UHGV virus genome: UHGV-0369576
Source of the DNA: a virus
DNA: 26,400 nt
Direction: 5' to 3' (one strand)
Shown: in pieces, positions 1,053-21,266 of the stretch
Layout of the letters: each line of letters starts with the position of its first letter
How positions within the stretch are numbered: position 1 is the first letter of the stretch
The notes under the pieces: model-generated
The model's input: only the letters and a program-made list of their open reading frames with translations
Databases searched by the model: none
Told to the model about the DNA's origin: nothing
Program-made: the position numbers and the translations under genes

Positions 1053-4000
1053 CCCGACGCGATGACTGCATAATTGACACAACCCTGCTGTCGATCAGAT
1101 CCACCAGTCCCCTGGCTGAGCGCGCATCTATCTCGCCATTGCTCCCTTGATTCTGAATGCTGATGTGATACACGGGAGAATAAACAAATCCACCGCCACC
1201 ATTCACATTTCCAATGGCCCTGACCCCAAGAGAGCCGTCCGCTGCCCGTGTCAGTGGCATGATTGCTTCGGGCCCGGCCTCGCCCATCAACCCGGCACCT
1301 TTCGCAAAAGCAAAATACGTCGGTGTATCCACAATAGTGTTACTGTAAGCACTCAGATTTGCCGATGTGTAAACACCACCTTTTGCGTTTGCCACTGCCC
1401 CCGAAATCCATCCGCCGACCGTACCAAGCCACCCTCCGGCACCGGAGAGTGATTTCAGTCCGTTAACAATGGCTGCATTCATCAGAATTTTTGAAACTTC
1501 CCGGAGAACTGAACTCCCCCAGTTCCTCCAGTCCACAACATTCCCGGCCAGTGCATCGGAAATATTTGATACCAGCCCGTCCATCGTGGAAACGACAGCA
1601 TCTGCCGCCTGTGAAGCATAATCGGTGGCACTGTCTGCCCAGTTGGTCAGTCCCTCCTGGAGTCCGGCATTCCAGTTATTACGTAAAGCATCGGCCTTTG
1701 CATAATAATCCTGCTGATCGCTGAGACGCTCTTCCAGATATTTTTTATTCAGTTCTTTCTCCTGTTTCCACAGAGCTTCTTCAATTTCTCCGGCCTGATA
1801 CTGTCTCAGCAGCTCGTTATTTTTCTGCTCAAACGCCTGCCGGATACTCCACATTTCCTGGAGTCGTTCACGCATCCGTGAGCCTTCACCATATCCCAGC
1901 AACTGCGCTTCGTCAGATGCCCGGGCACTGGCATTACTGTCCGCCAGACTGCTCTCATACGCAGCAAGCTGCTCACGAATCTTTTTCTGGTCGATGAGTG
2001 CTGCATTCTGCAAAAGCGTTTTTTTCTGCGCTTCTGACAGGGTTGATAATTCGCCCTGACTGACCTGATATTTCATCTTAGCCAGTTCAGTATTCTGCCC
2101 TGCCAGTGCTATTTGTTCTTTTTGCTGTTTAATCAGCCGTTTATAAATATCTTCTGTTTTTTCCGCTTCGGTCTTTTTATGCGCTTTGGGTTTATTTGCC
2201 TGGTTATTTCGCCAGGCATCCAGTGAGTTATTGATATAATTCTGTCTGGCTGTCTGATACGCCTCTCCCACAAAGCCGAGATCATCCGCAGCATAACCCA
2301 GGCGGGCACGCTCACGGGCTTCCCCCTTCAGGCGGGACAGAGCCAGTTCGCGCTCACTGTTATTCAGTGCGGTCTGCTGTTTATCATCCAGGGTTGCCTG
2401 TGGTAGCCGTAACGGTACATTCACCAGCCCCTGTCGCTGCTGAAGTAATTCATTACCGAGCCCGAGAAGGCGATTAAACTCGGTATGCTGCCCATTCATG
2501 ATCAACAGGGACTGATACGCTTTGTTTTGTTCCGCGGCCTGTTGACGGATCAACGCCACCCGTCGCTCCTCCAGCCCGGCAAGCACATCCTGAATGGATT
2601 GCGCTTTGCCCTGCATTTGTGTGAGACGGGACTGTTCAACTGCCAGTTGATTTGTTGCTTCTGCAAGCCCTTCTGTGACAGTTTTTACCGACGTCATGTG
2701 GTTAATCATAAAACCGTTATCGGTTGTCCAGCCCGGGTTTGCCAGCACATACTGATAGCCAGCAATTTTTTCCTGTAAGGATTTAATCTTACTTTTCTGC
2801 TCGTCAATTAACCTGTTTTGCTCATCAAGTGCCTGCCGCGTCTTTTCCTCATTATCTGACGCTTCAGGAAGCGACATTGCCGACGTTTTCTGGCGAATTT
2901 CGTCGATTGTTGCGGCATACTGGCGTGCAGATTCTCTGGCCTTCTCCTGATTCTGATACATCGTGTACCAGGCCGTCGCCCCCAGCATGACGAGTCCCGG
3001 CACACCACCAACCAACCCCAGCGCACCACTTAACAGACGACTCCCCACTGACGTGACAGTATTCAGCGTTGTCTGTGCCGCTGTTCTGGCCGCAATATTA
3101 CGGGTAAGTGACGCCTGGGCAGCTGTCAGCTTCGCTTCTGCTGCGGCCTGCCTTTCGGTACCGCGAGCAGCAACAACCGCCTGTTGCGCACGATAAACCG
3201 CCGCACGCGCCCTGGCGGTTGCTATCTGTGTCCCCCGAAGTTGCGCTTCAGCAAGAGCCACTTCGTTTCTGGCTGCAGTAATTAATCCGGCAGTTGCAGA
3301 TCCAGCAGACGACGCCATATTGCCAAAATATCGGGCTACCCCGACGGCAACCAGTGCGCCAGCTGCAGCAGCCACGGTATCCATATTGTCTGCAACACCA
3401 TTCAACACCCCGGTGAGTGTCTTTGTCACTCCGCTTGCCTCGTTCGCACCACCAACCCAGGCCATAAAGGCGTTTTCAACTTTGGTTGCAGAGGATGAAA
3501 CAGTATCAGGCATTGCTGCATATTCATCACGCAACGCCCCAAGCTGACTAATCAGTGCAGGAACAACCTTATCGGCGGTCAGTTTTCCGTTATCCGCCAT
3601 GGCCTTCAGATCCTTACGGGCAACACCCATTCCCGCAGCCAGCGCACGAATAACACGATCGCCGTTCTCATTCACAGAGTTAAATTCTTCACCGCGCAGC
3701 ACTCCCTGCGCCAGTGCCTGACTGAACTGCGTGATCACCGAACTGGCTTCTGCTGTACTGGCACCGGATAATTTCAGGCCCGTGGAGATCGCCTCGGTGA
3801 CTTTCAGTACCTCCTCAGAACTGTAGCCATACTCCCGCATGGAAGCTGCAGAGCGGGCAAAAAGGCTGGCGTTATCAGAAAACGCCGTTCCCGTTCTCTG
3901 GCTGATTGCCATTAATTCACGTTGTGATACCTGAAAATCATCACTGGACTGTGAAGCCTGCTTCAGACGGGCATTTACTGAATTCCACTCATCGGCGAGA

Positions 4001-13919: not shown

Positions 13920-14405
13920 ATGCCAGAACTCGTTGATCCAACAGACTCATTAATTAGTTTTCAATACGCCTTTTCTAATGGTCTGATTAAGCCTTCACCA
14001 TGCATAGTTCACCCAAATATGAAGGTGCTTTTGGATGATGCAGAGGGTACGCCACGGTTTACTTATGCATTCTTTGAAGGAGAAAATGTTAAAGGTGTTG
14101 CTATATATGTCCCTGCAGAGTTTGTTGAAGGTAAACCATGCTTTGGCGTTGGCTATGCAGTAGCCGATGAATATAAAGCGCAAGGCATCGGTACTCAACT
14201 TCTCATCGCCAGCATTGAAGAAATGCAATACGGATTTAGAAATTCCTTCAATGAATTCTATGTAGAGGCTATTGTCGGGGTTGGTAATCAAGCCTCCAAC
14301 AAATTAGCTGCAAAAGTTTTATCTGATACTCCTGAGCCAGGGACAGATTCTTACTCAGGAAAACCTATCAATCAGTACATGAAACTTTTCAAAACCACAA
14401 AATAA
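13920..14405 (+). CDS. GNAT-fold N-acetyltransferase-like moron
   Basis: Motif-A-like VGYAVADEYKAQGIGTQLL (Q-x-x-G-x-G) and motif-B-like FYVEAIVGVGNQASNKLAAKV; opposite strand to all neighbours; AT-rich; own AGGA SD and downstream hairpin. Confidence 0.55.
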   Translation: MPELVDPTDSLISFQYAFSNGLIKPSPCIVHPNMKVLLDDAEGTPRFTYAFFEGENVKGVAIYVPAEFVEGKPCFGVGYAVADEYKAQGIGTQLLIASIEEMQYGFRNSFNEFYVEAIVGVGNQASNKLAAKVLSDTPEPGTDSYSGKPINQYMKLFKTTK

Positions 14406-14583: not shown

Positions 14584-15051
14584 TTATCTGAGACATTGCT
14601 CACGAATGTATAGCTGTGCCCCTTCCAGTTGCTTCTGCATCGTCATCAACCGTTCTCTGAGGGTGAAATAATCCCGTTCAGCGGTGTCTGCCAGTCGGGG
14701 GCTGGTTGCATTATCCACGCTGGTGGGTCCGGTGGCTTCACGCACGGCTGCGGAGCAACTGGCATTGACCCGCAGGCGCTTACGACCAGCGGCAACATCA
14801 GCGCGCAGAGTTTCATTTTCAGCTTTCGCATTGGCTAATTCTCTCGAGTACTTTGCATCGAGCGCAGCAACATCACGCTGACGCTGTTGCATGTCAGCGA
14901 TGGTGGCAGTCGCCTGCTTCAGCTCACTGACTTTTTTATCACGCTGTTCTTTGTAGGCGATGGCGTTATCACGGTAATGATTGACCGCCCACGACAGGCA
15001 GACGATGGTGCAGATAACCAGAGTATAAATAATCGCTGCGACTCTGCTCAC
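14584..15051 (-). CDS. Rz: Rz i-spanin
   Basis: N-terminal TM helix then coiled-coil; GTG start overlaps endolysin stop (GTGA); contains embedded Rz1. Confidence 0.8.
14646..14831 (-). CDS. Rz1: Rz1 o-spanin lipoprotein embedded in Rz in the +1 frame
   Basis: Signal peptide with lipobox VSAC, proline-rich mature part, entirely within Rz. Confidence 0.8.
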
Positions 15052-15581
15052 TGATCTATCCCCCAACAGGCTAATGCGCTTTCCTGGTCACGACGAATAA
15101 CCTGTCCATAGCAGTTATTTGAACGTATGCGGCAATCGCGCCCACCATCTTTTATCCACCAGCGAATCGCCTCGCATGCGCCCTTACGATCACCGGCATT
15201 CAGCCGCTTATAAAACGTCGACGGGAAACACTTACCGGGGCCAATGTTATAGGGACAGAATGACGCTATACCCGCTTTCTGTGGTTCGGTCAGTGGTACT
15301 TTAATATTGCGCTCCACCCATGCCAGCGCCTTATCACGTTCAATAGCGTTAACCTGGTCGCATTTTTCCTTCGACAGCTTCATTCCCGGTATGACGGGCT
15401 TACCATCCACCATTGTGGCACCACGACAGATGGTCCATATACCGGAACCATCGCGGTATGCCGTAGTGTGGTTACCCTCTTTTTCATCCAGAAACTGGTC
15501 AAGTATTTGAGGAGCAGACGCGCCTGCAGCAATCAGCGCCAGAACAGCAGCTGACAGGCCGTATTTGATTTTTGCGCTCAT
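15048..15581 (-). CDS. R: SAR endolysin (lysozyme-like)
   Basis: N-terminal Gly/Ala-rich weakly hydrophobic SAR segment ([16 protein letters not shown]) followed by an E...D...T catalytic region. Confidence 0.85.
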
Positions 15582-15636
15582 GGATATTTATCAGGATGCT
15601 ACCAATGAAAGATACTGGAAAGCCAACTGCAAAAAG

Positions 15637-15951
15637 CTAACAACCTGTAATCGAGTTATCAGAACTGTTAATTTTTATGGTATACCGCGCCTCTGAACAG
15701 GGGCGCGTTTCTGGCAACAGCTCGTCCCCTTCACATAACCCGGCAGCAACATCCAGGAAGACCTGTCTGATGCTCCTTCTGGCTGCTGCCTCATAAAACT
15801 CCAGCGCGGCACCTTCAACACGGTCCAGCGAGATGTCCAAGCCAAAAATTTCACCGTCAAAGCGTTTTTTGTCCCGTAACGCTAAAGTTACCGTAACTTT
15901 ATTCTCAAAATTGCGGATCCCTTTCACAATCAGTTCATAGTTTTGAGTCAT
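15637..15951 (-). CDS. Hypothetical protein (104 aa) inserted between holin and endolysin
   Basis: ATG at 15951 with GGAGAG SD, 4 nt after the holin stop; no TM segment; no recognisable motif. Confidence 0.6.
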   Translation of the reverse strand: MTQNYELIVKGIRNFENKVTVTLALRDKKRFDGEIFGLDISLDRVEGAALEFYEAAARRSIRQVFLDVAAGLCEGDELLPETRPCSEARYTIKINSSDNSITGC

Positions 15952-15955
15952 TGAA

Positions 15956-16171
15956 TTACTCTCCCCGTGCAGCCTTACGCTTGTCTTCTCTGATTTTGAA
16001 GTACAGATTTGTCAGATAAGTCAGGAAGCCCAGAACCAGACTCCCCAGTACACCAATCGCAGCCCACTGTGACGGACTGACCTGATCAAGCCACTGTAAA
16101 AACCAGTAGCCAGCACTGCCTGCGGAGGTGCCGTAGGCAATGCCCGTTGAAATTTTGTCCATGGATTTCAT
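15956..16171 (-). CDS. S: Pinholin (phage 21 S-like) with dual-start motif
   Basis: 71 aa, [30 protein letters not shown]..., two TM helices, MKSM dual start; GGAGGTGAGG SD. Confidence 0.9.
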
Positions 16172-16463: not shown

Positions 16464-16538
<75 letters not shown>

Positions 16539-16541
16539 ATA

Positions 16542-16617
<76 letters not shown>

Positions 16618-16619
16618 AC

Positions 16620-16696
16620 TGGACCGCCACCGGGGACTCGAACCTCGCACACTCAACTTAAAGGGTTGACGCTCTTTCCTGATGAGCTAGTGGCGG
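16620..16696 (-). tRNA. tRNA-like gene with non-canonical features (anticodon region CCUUUAA, possibly UUU/Lys)
   Basis: Perfect 7-bp acceptor stem starting C1-G72, D and T arms present, encoded CCA, but C at position 33 and an A-C mismatch in the T stem. Confidence 0.45.
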
Positions 16697-16697
16697 C

Positions 16698-16773
16698 TGG
16701 TGGCCCTTGCTGGATTTGAACCAGCGACCTGGCGATTATGAGTCGCTCGCTCTCACCACTGAGCTAAAGGGCC
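16698..16773 (-). tRNA. tRNA with CAU anticodon (Ile2/Met type, ileX/ileZ-like)
   Basis: Anticodon loop CUCAUAA; overall similarity to E. coli ileX from memory; encoded CCA. Confidence 0.7.
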
Positions 16774-16877
16774 GGGCGCAGGATAATAACGTTACGAAAT
16801 CAATGTTGCAAGCATTCAAAAATCACCCTTATCTCCTCCACCAGCGCATTCACCATGTCTATCCGAGATAAGTGGCA

Positions 16878-16904
16878 CAAAAAACCCGCTTGTGGGCGGG
16901 TTTT
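16878..16904 (-). terminator. tR'-like intrinsic terminator downstream of the late promoter
   Basis: cccgc-ttgtgg-gcggg stem flanked by A-run and T-run (bidirectional), about 50 nt downstream of the predicted pR' start. Confidence 0.55.
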
Positions 16905-16955
16905 GTTTGCTTTTGCCATCACGTACAAAATCGGCAAAATATCAGATTTGCATGA

Positions 16956-16984
16956 AATATATGCCTTTCAATCTACTTTTGCAA
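16956..16984 (-). promoter_or_regulatory. pR'-like late promoter
   Basis: Minus-strand TTGCAA, 17-nt spacer, TATATT, overlapping the 3' end of the Q-like gene. Confidence 0.5.
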
Positions 16985-17657
16985 CACTTTGCTTTGAAAA
17001 TGCCACCTTTTGTTTTGAACGTGTTCTCATTACAAACAATAAAGCCTCACTATCAAGTCGGTGAAAAATGTGTTTCATTGCAACCCAGTGACGAGTAAAT
17101 GTTTTGGACCAGTTTTTAGTTGTCACTCCCGCCAGTAATGCCAGCTCCTGGTATTCATAACCTTCCCCACCAAAAAGTTCTGCTTTTACTGCCTGCGCCG
17201 CCAGCCAGATTAATTTTTTCAGGCGTTCCTGCGTTTTCCCTGCAATTTTTCTGGTACCGGATTGAGTATTAAATTCATTCCACGCCCACTGTGTTATCGC
17301 GATCTGATATTCCCAACAAATACTCCCGCTGTAACACCACAACAACCAGGCTTTATGATGTTCTTCAAGAGACAGAACTGCCCGTCGCCATGATGATGTC
17401 GAAAACTCAACCTGACTTACCAGAGCAATTGATGAGCCTTTCGCCAGTGATTGTTTTCCCGGTATCGGTGGACTATCCCGCGTTATCATTCTTCCAGTCA
17501 CTTCATCGCGGTACCGGATTTTTTTACGCCTGTAACGCCCTGTATCAAACATGGCATTCTCCTGCCAGGCTTCAAGCTGACCTTTTGTTGCCCCACTCAA
17601 ATCAGCGGTAGCGATAATGAGCTGCTCACGCACAAACTGTAAATACTGGTTATTCAT
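16968..17657 (-). CDS. Late-gene antiterminator Q-like protein
   Basis: Position between RusA and the pR'/tR'/lysis genes; ATGA overlap with RusA stop; no specific motif recognised, call is positional. Confidence 0.55.
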   Translation of the reverse strand: MNNQYLQFVREQLIIATADLSGATKGQLEAWQENAMFDTGRYRRKKIRYRDEVTGRMITRDSPPIPGKQSLAKGSSIALVSQVEFSTSSWRRAVLSLEEHHKAWLLWCYSGSICWEYQIAITQWAWNEFNTQSGTRKIAGKTQERLKKLIWLAAQAVKAELFGGEGYEYQELALLAGVTTKNWSKTFTRHWVAMKHIFHRLDSEALLFVMRTRSKQKVAFSKQSVAKVD

Positions 17658-18013
17658 GCGCACTCCAGTTCTGTGATTTTTATCCCCAGCCGACCACCAG
17701 GAACAGGCAGTCCGCGCACAATATTGATTTCATCAAACTGCTCGTCGTCTATGAGAAGTCCGGCATGCGTCAGCGCATCCAGTGGTGCCTTCAGGATATT
17801 GTCCAGGTCGCGGCGGCGCTTATCCGGTGGCTCTGCAATAATTTTTATTGCCAGCCTTCCGGACAGGTTTAATTTCAACCGCTGCTGGCGAACAATTAGT
17901 GCCACATCACGGCGATAACGCTCACCGACTTTTGATACAAAATATGTGTTGCCACGACGTCGCCAGTAAGTATTCACCGTCGGCGGATAAGGCAAAACAA
18001 ACTCTATACGCAT
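17654..18013 (-). CDS. rusA: RusA Holliday junction resolvase
   Basis: 119 aa, LPYPPTVNTYWRRRGN...RRRDLDNILKAPLDAL, RusA-family motifs. Confidence 0.85.
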   Translation of the reverse strand: MRIEFVLPYPPTVNTYWRRRGNTYFVSKVGERYRRDVALIVRQQRLKLNLSGRLAIKIIAEPPDKRRRDLDNILKAPLDALTHAGLLIDDEQFDEINIVRGLPVPGGRLGIKITELECA

Positions 18014-20579: not shown

Positions 20580-21266
20580 TCACTCCTTCTCTTCTTTTCC
20601 GTAGTGGAGTTGGCCAATTTTGATAAGAGGGCGTCCCTGAGATTTGCGGTGTAGATTGGTATCGCGCAGAGAATACACACAGCCACAATATTCCTGCTGA
20701 TAGAATTTTTCGCGCTTGCTGATTTCAATCATACGGGACGAGCCGCCCTGCTTGCGCCAGTTATAATCCCAGTACACCATACCCGGATAATGCGCAACAG
20801 CTCGCCGCCCACACTCGTTAACCTGCTGCATATTTTTCCAGCGTGAAATGCCCAGTGAACTGCTGATCACACTGAAACCATTTTCAGCAGCGTACAACGC
20901 TGTCCGCTCAAAACGCATGTCAAAACACATGGTACAACGGATCCCCCTCTCAGGCTCCCATTCCATTCCTTTGGCACGTTCAAACCAGTTGTCGGTGTCG
21001 TAATCAGCATCGATAAACGGCACGCCGTGTTGTTCAGCAAAGCGAATATTTTCATCCTTACGAATTAAATACTCTTTCTGAGGATGAATGTTCGGGTTGT
21101 AGAAAAAGATGGTGTAGTCGATTCCCGAGGCCTGAAGCGCCTCCATCACTTCACCGGAACATGGAGCACAGCAAGAGTGCAGTAGTAGTTTGTTTGCCCC
21201 GTTTGGGAGCTCCAATTTAGGCCGTTTGAAATCAGCAATAGTCATAAATATTTTTATTGGGGTCAT
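20580..21266 (-). CDS. Cys-rich DUF208/QueH-like protein (putative epoxyqueuosine-reductase family)
   Basis: N-terminal [14 protein letters not shown] motif plus further Cys clusters (CTMCFD, EYCGCVY); family assignment from memory of the motif only. Confidence 0.45.

Follow-up and report, generated by a model that had tools for sequence, protein, structure and literature searches.

A YdfR-family gene between holin and endolysin

The 104-amino-acid gene that separates the holin from the endolysin in the virus genome UHGV-0369576 (a stretch of 26,400 nucleotides, here called the window) is almost certainly a member of the YdfR/DUF1327 family, an optional piece of lambdoid late-operon cargo that normally sits between holin S and lysozyme R. 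The gene was taken from the ORF list and occupies positions 15637..15951 of the minus strand, with an ATG start and 104 codons plus stop. Its product matched the Pfam profile DUF1327 (PF07041) with 128.9 bits against a cut-off of 25 (E=8.3e-38), spanning profile positions 1-90 of 93, and it matched PHROG 2735 over its full length (E=2e-54). BLASTP aligned it with K-12 YdfR at 64% identity overall (E=4e-45). Residues 1-68 of the two proteins are nearly colinear, 58 of the 68 being identical, and identity over residues 1-72 is ~85%; the differences lie almost all beyond residue 68. When the 1.9-kb cassette was used as a megablast query, 100%-identical copies were found in many RefSeq E. coli chromosomes, in which the gene is labelled 'DUF1327 domain-containing protein' (for example WP_000193292.1 in strain EBJ003). 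A score above the Pfam threshold, similarity to YdfR, the position between holin and lysozyme and the core motif described below all identify the gene as a DUF1327 member.

An earlier note, made from the sequence alone, had offered a lysis-timing regulator, an abortive-infection or anti-defence factor or a moron as possible roles; it had recognised no motif in this protein and had implied that the gene was an unusual insertion. The product in fact belongs to Pfam PF07041 and PHROG 2735 and is annotated as DUF1327 in RefSeq, and its position is a textbook one, which matches the layout of K-12 Qin and recurs as similar DNA in ~80% of complete E. coli genomes. As the window gene belongs to the family of K-12 YdfR itself, Pfam, the PHROGs, RefSeq and the K-12 annotation already contain the gene together with its family name and position.

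The reading frame is far beyond what chance would produce, as judged by the Pfam match (E=8e-38), 259 database homologues and a dN/dS of 0.24-0.30 over codons 1-72 in comparisons with the Qin and YYZ-2008 homologues. The value was 0.24 in the comparison with Qin and 0.28 in that with the YYZ-2008 type, which is ~54% identical and gives a dS of ~1.6. A dN/dS of this size over a dS of up to ~1.6 indicates long-term purifying selection on the protein. The description of a well-formed gene in the earlier note was thus borne out by the Pfam match, the homologues and the conservation of the frame as coding sequence. The product was likewise found to be acidic and soluble in character, with a pI of 4.99 (17 D+E versus 14 K+R) and a maximal 19-residue Kyte-Doolittle window of 0.75, and thus without a segment of transmembrane grade. 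The note had counted two cysteines near the C-terminus; there are three, at positions 73, 85 and 104.

Several frame variants were observed in the region. An alternative frame is present within the gene at 15675-15860 (minus strand), the database variants P0108, P0120, P0143 and P0149 enter the +1 frame (...MLLPGYVKG...) near codon 66, and P0019 continues through the downstream spacer in another frame. The +1-frame variants and P0019 look like frameshift mutations or sequencing errors, not programmed frameshifting.

Lysis cassette and late-control region

The gene is part of a minus-strand lambdoid late region with the order Q, pR'-like promoter and GC-rich hairpin, four tRNA genes, holin, YdfR-like gene, lysozyme and Rz/Rz1. 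The upstream neighbour is a phage-21-type class II holin of 71 aa (15956..16171, minus strand), which matched PF04971 'Bacteriophage P21 holin S' (E=1.4e-35) and PHROG holin families. It contains a hydrophobic segment with a Kyte-Doolittle value of 1.72 and has Met1 and Met4 at the dual-start position. The downstream neighbour is endolysin R, a phage lysozyme of 177 aa (15048..15581, minus strand; PF00959, E=1.1e-24; PHROG 7 endolysin). Its residues 9-27 form an Ala/Gly/Ser-rich hydrophobic stretch (Kyte-Doolittle 1.78), consistent with a SAR domain at the N-terminus. These assignments agree with the flanking genes proposed in the earlier note, a phage-21-type holin and a SAR endolysin. The cassette is completed by the Rz spanin (14584..15066, minus strand; PF03245, E=1.9e-49) and by Rz1, which is embedded in Rz (14646..14831, minus strand; PF06085, E=1.4e-18). 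The start of Rz is uncertain, the options being a TTG at 15066 (160 aa) and a GTG at 15051 (155 aa), the latter in a GTGA overlap with the R stop. RefSeq annotation of the identical cassette in EBJ003 includes Rz1 and has no CDS for Rz. A GNAT-family acetyltransferase gene (13920-14405, plus strand; PF00583, E=4e-6) lies between Rz/Rz1 and the HNH endonuclease and terminase genes on the opposite strand, a moron-like placement.

The late-control region placed to drive the cassette extends upstream over 16464..17663 (minus strand). It holds the gene for the Q antiterminator (16968..17663, minus strand; PF06323, E=1.9e-89), a pR'-like promoter that overlaps the 3' end of Q (TTGCAA-17-TATATT, 16984..16956, minus strand) and a 10-bp GC-rich hairpin with a T-run (16881..16904), which the scan called terminator-like on the plus strand; promoter and hairpin are consensus matches only. 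By position the hairpin could be the tR' site acted on by Q. ARAGORN and Rfam identified the four tRNA genes (16464..16773, minus strand), with the anticodons Gly-TCC, Thr-TGT, Lys-TTT and CAT. The CAT tRNA was assigned to Met by ARAGORN, and RefSeq gives Ile at the corresponding cluster position in EBJ003. The position of these genes between Q/pR' and the holin is the slot used for tRNAs and stx genes in Stx phages. The same prophage carries a tRNA-modification enzyme in its early region, a full-length homologue of the epoxyqueuosine reductase QueH (20580-21266, minus strand; PF02677, E=1e-65).

A promoter/terminator scan found no promoter-like or terminator-like site between S, the YdfR-like gene and R. 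The gene is therefore very probably co-transcribed with the lysis genes, as had been supposed in the earlier note, and an independently expressed moron with an internal promoter or terminator of its own was rejected on the same result.

In K-12 the family is represented by YdfR (b1555, P76160), encoded by the Qin cryptic prophage and of the same length class (103 aa versus 104 aa here). The Qin order of essQ (P21-type holin), ydfR, rrrQ (177-aa lysozyme) and rzpQ/rzoQ places ydfR in the slot of the window gene, and rrrQ is 90.6% identical to the window R at the DNA level. The two cassettes differ at the downstream junction, where Qin ydfR and rrrQ overlap as ATGA and the window has a 55-nt spacer instead, and in the Rz module, which is DLP12-like in the window and DUF2514 in Qin.

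Other cassettes do without the gene. Phage PA2 has a holin with ~77% identity and a lysozyme with 94% protein identity to those of the window, and nothing between S and R. In K-12 DLP12 essD and rrrD are contiguous, and its Rz/Rz1 pair is of the same type as in the window (80.8% DNA identity). The cassettes of phage 21, PA2 and DLP12 thus share the holin family and the holin-embedded Shine-Dalgarno sequence with the window, but have contiguous S and R. The phage 21 cassette itself contains no gene between S and R. The direct adjacency of S and R in PA2 and DLP12 upholds the earlier view that a contiguous junction is interrupted here.

A conserved N-terminal domain with exchangeable tails

An AlphaFold2 model built on a 31-sequence alignment, taken together with the alignments and the dN/dS values, delimits a conserved N-terminal domain at codons 1-72 (15736..15951, minus strand). 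The predicted fold is beta-beta-beta-alpha, with antiparallel strands at residues 4-13, 17-26 and 32-42 followed by a long helix at 49-72, and the block-mean pLDDT was 70-90 across the domain. The most conserved motif, R-x-E-G-A-x-L-E-F-Y-E-A, is located at the start of the helix. In the window protein residues 44-56 read RVEGAALEFYEAA, and the G, A, L, E, F, Y, E and A of the motif are invariant in the 31-sequence alignment. K-12 YdfR shares the EGAALEFYEAAARRS motif within its residues 1-72.

Codons 73-104 (15640..15735, minus strand) encode a variable C-terminal tail, which is of the 'tail B' type (...LCEGDELLPETRPCSEARYTIKINSSDNSITGC). Values below 50 at residues 73-90 and 98-103 predict that the tail is disordered. 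From about residue 69 onwards the tails of the two proteins are unrelated, with LCEGDELLPETRPCSEARYTIKINSSDNSITGC in the window and EKLSEKVESYLQHQYSFKIENPANKHERPHHKYL in K-12 YdfR. At the DNA level homology between the window and Qin covers the holin and ydfR codons ~1-69, breaks, and resumes 10 nt before R. This pattern identifies the tail as a separate mosaic module.

Among the 167 proteins retrieved we distinguished two types of N-domain, RFDGEIF and GGYxSLLLP, and three short tails, namely CSEARYTIKIN... (the window type), IILEAQNVWITY... and the K-12 type EKVESYLQHQYS.... The two sets assort freely, whether or not a coiled-coil extension is present, and the longest form in the family has 287 aa. 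Some columns are invariant even between N-domain types that are only ~54% identical. In P0150 and P0165, tail B was also found joined to N-terminal domains that are unrelated. A second DUF1327-like domain at the N-terminus of P0150 was considered and discarded, the hhalign match coming from the common tail B alone. Truncated, frameshifted or fused variants are numerous in the databases.

Distribution of an optional gene

DNA similar to the gene was present in 4352 of 5426 complete E. coli genomes, at up to 10 places in one genome. In the phage collection DUF1327 occurred in 101 records, compared with 438 for the holin family and 457 for the lysozyme; the bearers include mEp460, whose gene is 98% identical to that of the window, as well as H-19B, BP-4795, YYZ-2008 and many ECOR-induced phages. 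Among Stx phage records DUF1327 was found in 41 of Stx1a, 15 of Stx2c and 2 of Stx2a phages, and the holin in 47, 17 and 124 records, respectively. Stx2a phages resemble PA2 in that the holin family and the lysozyme are directly adjacent. The skew in the Stx record counts probably reflects phage lineage but could bear on when the toxin is released. The gene is optional, being freely gained and lost between related phages.

The family is narrow and confined to enterobacterial prophages. A HMMER search of 1.84 billion representative proteins returned only 59 clusters, all of them close relatives or fragments, and wherever an organism was named it was Escherichia, Shigella or Salmonella. Two large proteins with multi-stretch matches at E ~1e-5 (P0159 and P0161) look like compositional matches.

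The layout of holin, DUF1327 gene and lysozyme recurs in K-12 Qin, YYZ-2008, mEp460 and the contig that encodes the 287-aa form, and in Salmonella it recurs with another holin. At the Salmonella loci (L010-L012, gene at 3001-3312) the upstream holin belongs to PF16080, is ~100 aa long and is separated from the gene by 120 nt. The same 177-aa lysozyme follows ~366 nt downstream, and a small antisense ORF was called in this gap at two of the three loci. The most divergent member, P0162 (94 aa, 38% identical, Pfam E=1.8e-13), is encoded outside any lysis cassette, at 3001-3285 of a Logan SRR16693353 contig (L009) between lambda I-like and J-like tail genes; a megablast of this contig against the phage collection gave no match. 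The PF16080 holin in Salmonella and the tail-gene site of P0162 together identify the family as late-operon cargo that is bound neither to one holin nor strictly to lysis genes.

Searches for a functional relative

The YdfR-like protein lacks the features of lysis proteins (transmembrane domain, signal or SAR sequence, lipobox), and Pfam and PHROG returned only DUF1327 and PHROGs of unknown function. No known lysis accessory protein, the kind of relative that in the earlier note would have refuted its reading, appeared among the Pfam and PHROG matches. NCBIfam held no model for the protein, and no solved structure was related to it by sequence. Foldseek against the BFVD viral models gave no match at E<=0.001, the fold matches being generic and below significance. 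None of the PADLOC-DB 2.0 defence models matched the window protein, P0130, P0131 or P0054 at E<=0.1. No sequence or fold homology to Dip, RraA, RraB, RapZ or Srd was found. The extensions at the C-terminus of the long variants had only coiled-coil-type matches below threshold in Pfam, and a PHROG scan of the excised extensions returned unknown-function families only. In the literature DUF1327 is mentioned in a single paper, in passing, and ydfR is still among the uncharacterised genes of K-12 (the y-ome) in a survey from 2024 (PMC11551758).

A possible link to RNase E

Functional evidence on the family comes from K-12 YdfR. With RNase G as bait, a two-hybrid screen yielded YdfR 1-72 three times (Göpel et al. 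2026, PMC13232886). Both the full-length protein and the 1-72 fragment gave two-hybrid signals with RNase E 1-597, Rne1-598 co-eluted with Strep-YdfR from lysates that had not been treated with nuclease, and the Strep-YdfR eluate was rich in DNase-resistant nucleic acid (PMC13232886). In a separate over-expression screen ydfR led to a 3-fold rise in streptomycin MIC (PMC12924614).

By analogy with the K-12 protein, we tentatively suggest that the window gene encodes a late-expressed protein whose N-domain binds host RNase E and/or RNA and which is not a lysis component, a reading that we consider possible but short of probable. The gene would be transcribed only late, off the Q-dependent pR' transcript, and would be translated from the Shine-Dalgarno sequence in the last codons of the holin, the site that would drive R where the gene is absent. 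The product would be a small, soluble, acidic cytoplasmic protein composed of the conserved 72-residue beta-beta-beta-alpha domain and a disordered tail swapped by recombination. As reported for the K-12 orthologue, the N-domain would bind a host factor, for which the catalytic N-terminal half of RNase E and/or RNA is the likeliest candidate. In this way the protein would adjust the turnover of RNA during late lytic growth. It would take no part in the action of holin, endolysin or spanin. That the gene is dispensable for lysis is indicated by PA2, the Stx2a phages and DLP12, which join S and R without it, and by the record counts given above.

Several points weigh against an RNase E binder. 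The contact has been reported for K-12 YdfR only, by two-hybrid assay and by co-purification without nuclease treatment, and it could be RNA-bridged. Over-production of YdfR in K-12 was non-toxic and altered few transcripts (PMC13232886). The window tail departs from the K-12 tail from about residue 69, and the conservation of position beside R in E. coli and Salmonella could reflect a role related to lysis.

If the K-12 result transfers, and only then, the protein would resemble the phage RNase E modulators T4 Srd, phiKZ Dip and T7 gp0.7 and the host proteins RraA, RraB and RapZ (roles as named in PMC13232886 and from established knowledge). Srd and RapZ touch RNase E in its catalytic N-terminal half, as the YdfR-like protein would then do too. 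More speculatively still, and with a good deal less than even likelihood, the N-domain might be a prophage ligand that recognises RNase E or RNase G in the catalytic half and so define a new class of viral RNase E modulator, which the majority of E. coli strains would carry and which would be produced solely as the lytic cycle ends. Which RNAs or partners it is steered to would depend on the exchangeable module at its C-terminus (three short tails, coiled coil, larger domains).

Translation of R and a possible effect on lysis

The sequence between the YdfR-like gene and its neighbours bears on a different explanation, that the gene modulates lysis. On the minus strand the upstream junction reads GGGGAGAG-TAA-TTCA-ATG, which places the Shine-Dalgarno sequence GGGGAGAG (15959..15966, minus strand) within the final codons of the holin, at the 3' end of its gene, and the ATG 4 nt past the holin stop. 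This is exactly as described in the earlier note, which gave the Shine-Dalgarno sequence as GGAGAG. In the alignment with PA2, where the junction reads TAA-GCTG-ATG(R), the YdfR-like start codon occupies the position of the R start. The same GGGGAGAG element thus serves the YdfR-like gene here and R in cassettes that lack the gene.

Downstream, 55 nt separate the YdfR-like stop from the lysozyme start (15582..15636, minus strand; delimited by junction alignment), and this spacer ends in CCTGATAAATATCCATG. R is preceded by CCTGATAAATATCCATG (15582-15600 in the window) also in mEp460 and YYZ-2008, other tail classes being included, and in Qin by the closely related ...CATCATAAATATCTATG. In this small sample of aligned junctions (window, mEp460, YYZ-2008 and Qin) no obvious Shine-Dalgarno sequence precedes R, and the first ~8 codons of R (15558-15581) differ between PA2 and the four aligned YdfR-containing cassettes, again a small sample. 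The spacer showed no significant RNA structure (fold z-score 0.07) and no Rfam match, and a regulatory RNA before R was rejected on these two results.

A modulator of lysis could act by either of two routes. In trans, a cytoplasmic factor would tune the timing or completeness of pinholin/SAR-endolysin lysis by binding the cytoplasmic C-terminal tail of the holin or the nascent SAR endolysin, like T4 RIII, to which it is not homologous. In cis, the gene would lower R synthesis by moving R away from the strong Shine-Dalgarno sequence that is embedded in the holin gene. The loss of the GGGGAGAG element by R wherever the gene is present, with no obvious replacement, fits the second route, and the ATGA overlap of Qin ydfR and rrrQ suggests translational coupling. 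The position directly upstream of the 177-aa lysozyme is moreover kept in both E. coli and Salmonella, even behind another holin family. A K-12 screen tied ydfR to envelope integrity, as cited in PMC13232886, which would also suit a role in lysis; the envelope phenotype of the deletion could, however, be a polar effect on rrrQ.

The resemblance to T4 RIII, a cytoplasmic antiholin cofactor, is one of functional analogy only: both are small, soluble cytoplasmic proteins co-expressed with a holin, but no search detected homology, the YdfR-like gene is dispensable and its most divergent homologue is unlinked to a lysis cassette. The dual start of the phage 21 holin yields an antiholin. The holin of the window already bears the Met1/Met4 dual-start pattern, and the YdfR-like protein has no transmembrane or membrane-binding segment of its own. 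Complete phages (PA2, the Stx2a phages and, by established knowledge, phage 21) have cassettes without the gene. The location of P0162 in a tail-gene cluster argues against a strictly lysis-specific role, and a role exercised in cis alone is disfavoured by the purifying selection that the protein shows. We rate an effect on lysis, by whichever route, as unlikely, somewhat below the binding of RNase E or RNA.

Conflict protein or passenger

Somewhat less likely again is that the gene is cargo of an arms race, an anti-defence, superinfection-exclusion or other conflict protein housed in a recombination-prone slot of the late operon. Specificity would then come from the swapped C-terminal modules, with the conserved N-domain as their scaffold. 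The patchy occurrence of the gene among close relatives (Stx1a and Stx2c versus Stx2a records) accords with such a role, as do the free assortment of N-domains and tails, with or without a coiled coil or a larger C-terminal domain, the reuse of tail B on unrelated N-domains and the restriction of the family to enterobacterial prophages (59 clusters among 1.84 billion representatives). Tail swapping may, on the other hand, be plain lambdoid mosaicism at a module junction. No PADLOC match was obtained, and the fold matches were generic and sub-significant. Timing also speaks against cargo of this kind. Hardly any RNA-seq reads came from K-12 ydfR under standard growth conditions (PMC13232886), a finding that disfavours a defence moron expressed in the lysogen, and the apparent late-only expression would be the wrong time for protecting a lysogen and late for anti-defence.

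Improbable is a near-neutral passenger with little or no present phage function, retained mainly by linkage to the essential S and R: free loss and gain between related phages, the many truncated, frameshifted and fused variants and the slight effect of over-expression in K-12 (PMC13232886) would fit it, but the dN/dS of 0.24-0.30 over a dS of up to ~1.6, the columns held invariant across ~54%-identical N-domain types and the presence in ~80% of complete E. coli genomes, at up to 10 places in one of them, tell against it.

Significance

The sequence feature itself adds nothing new. Its interest is that a very widespread yet uncharacterised gene of E. coli prophages sits within one of the best-studied lysis cassettes, and that DUF1327 is present in most Stx1a and Stx2c phage records. 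Natural cassettes with and without the gene share their S and R families, the gene takes over the ribosome-binding site of R, and its product combines a domain with swappable tails. The RNase E link, if confirmed, would be of importance to the RNA biology of phages and might bear on when Stx is released. Should the N-domain prove to be a ligand of RNase E or RNase G, a long-standing K-12 y-gene, found more often than any other 'extra' gene in the lysis cassettes of lambdoid and Stx phages, would gain a function in stabilising or destabilising late mRNA or in setting the time of lysis and toxin release.
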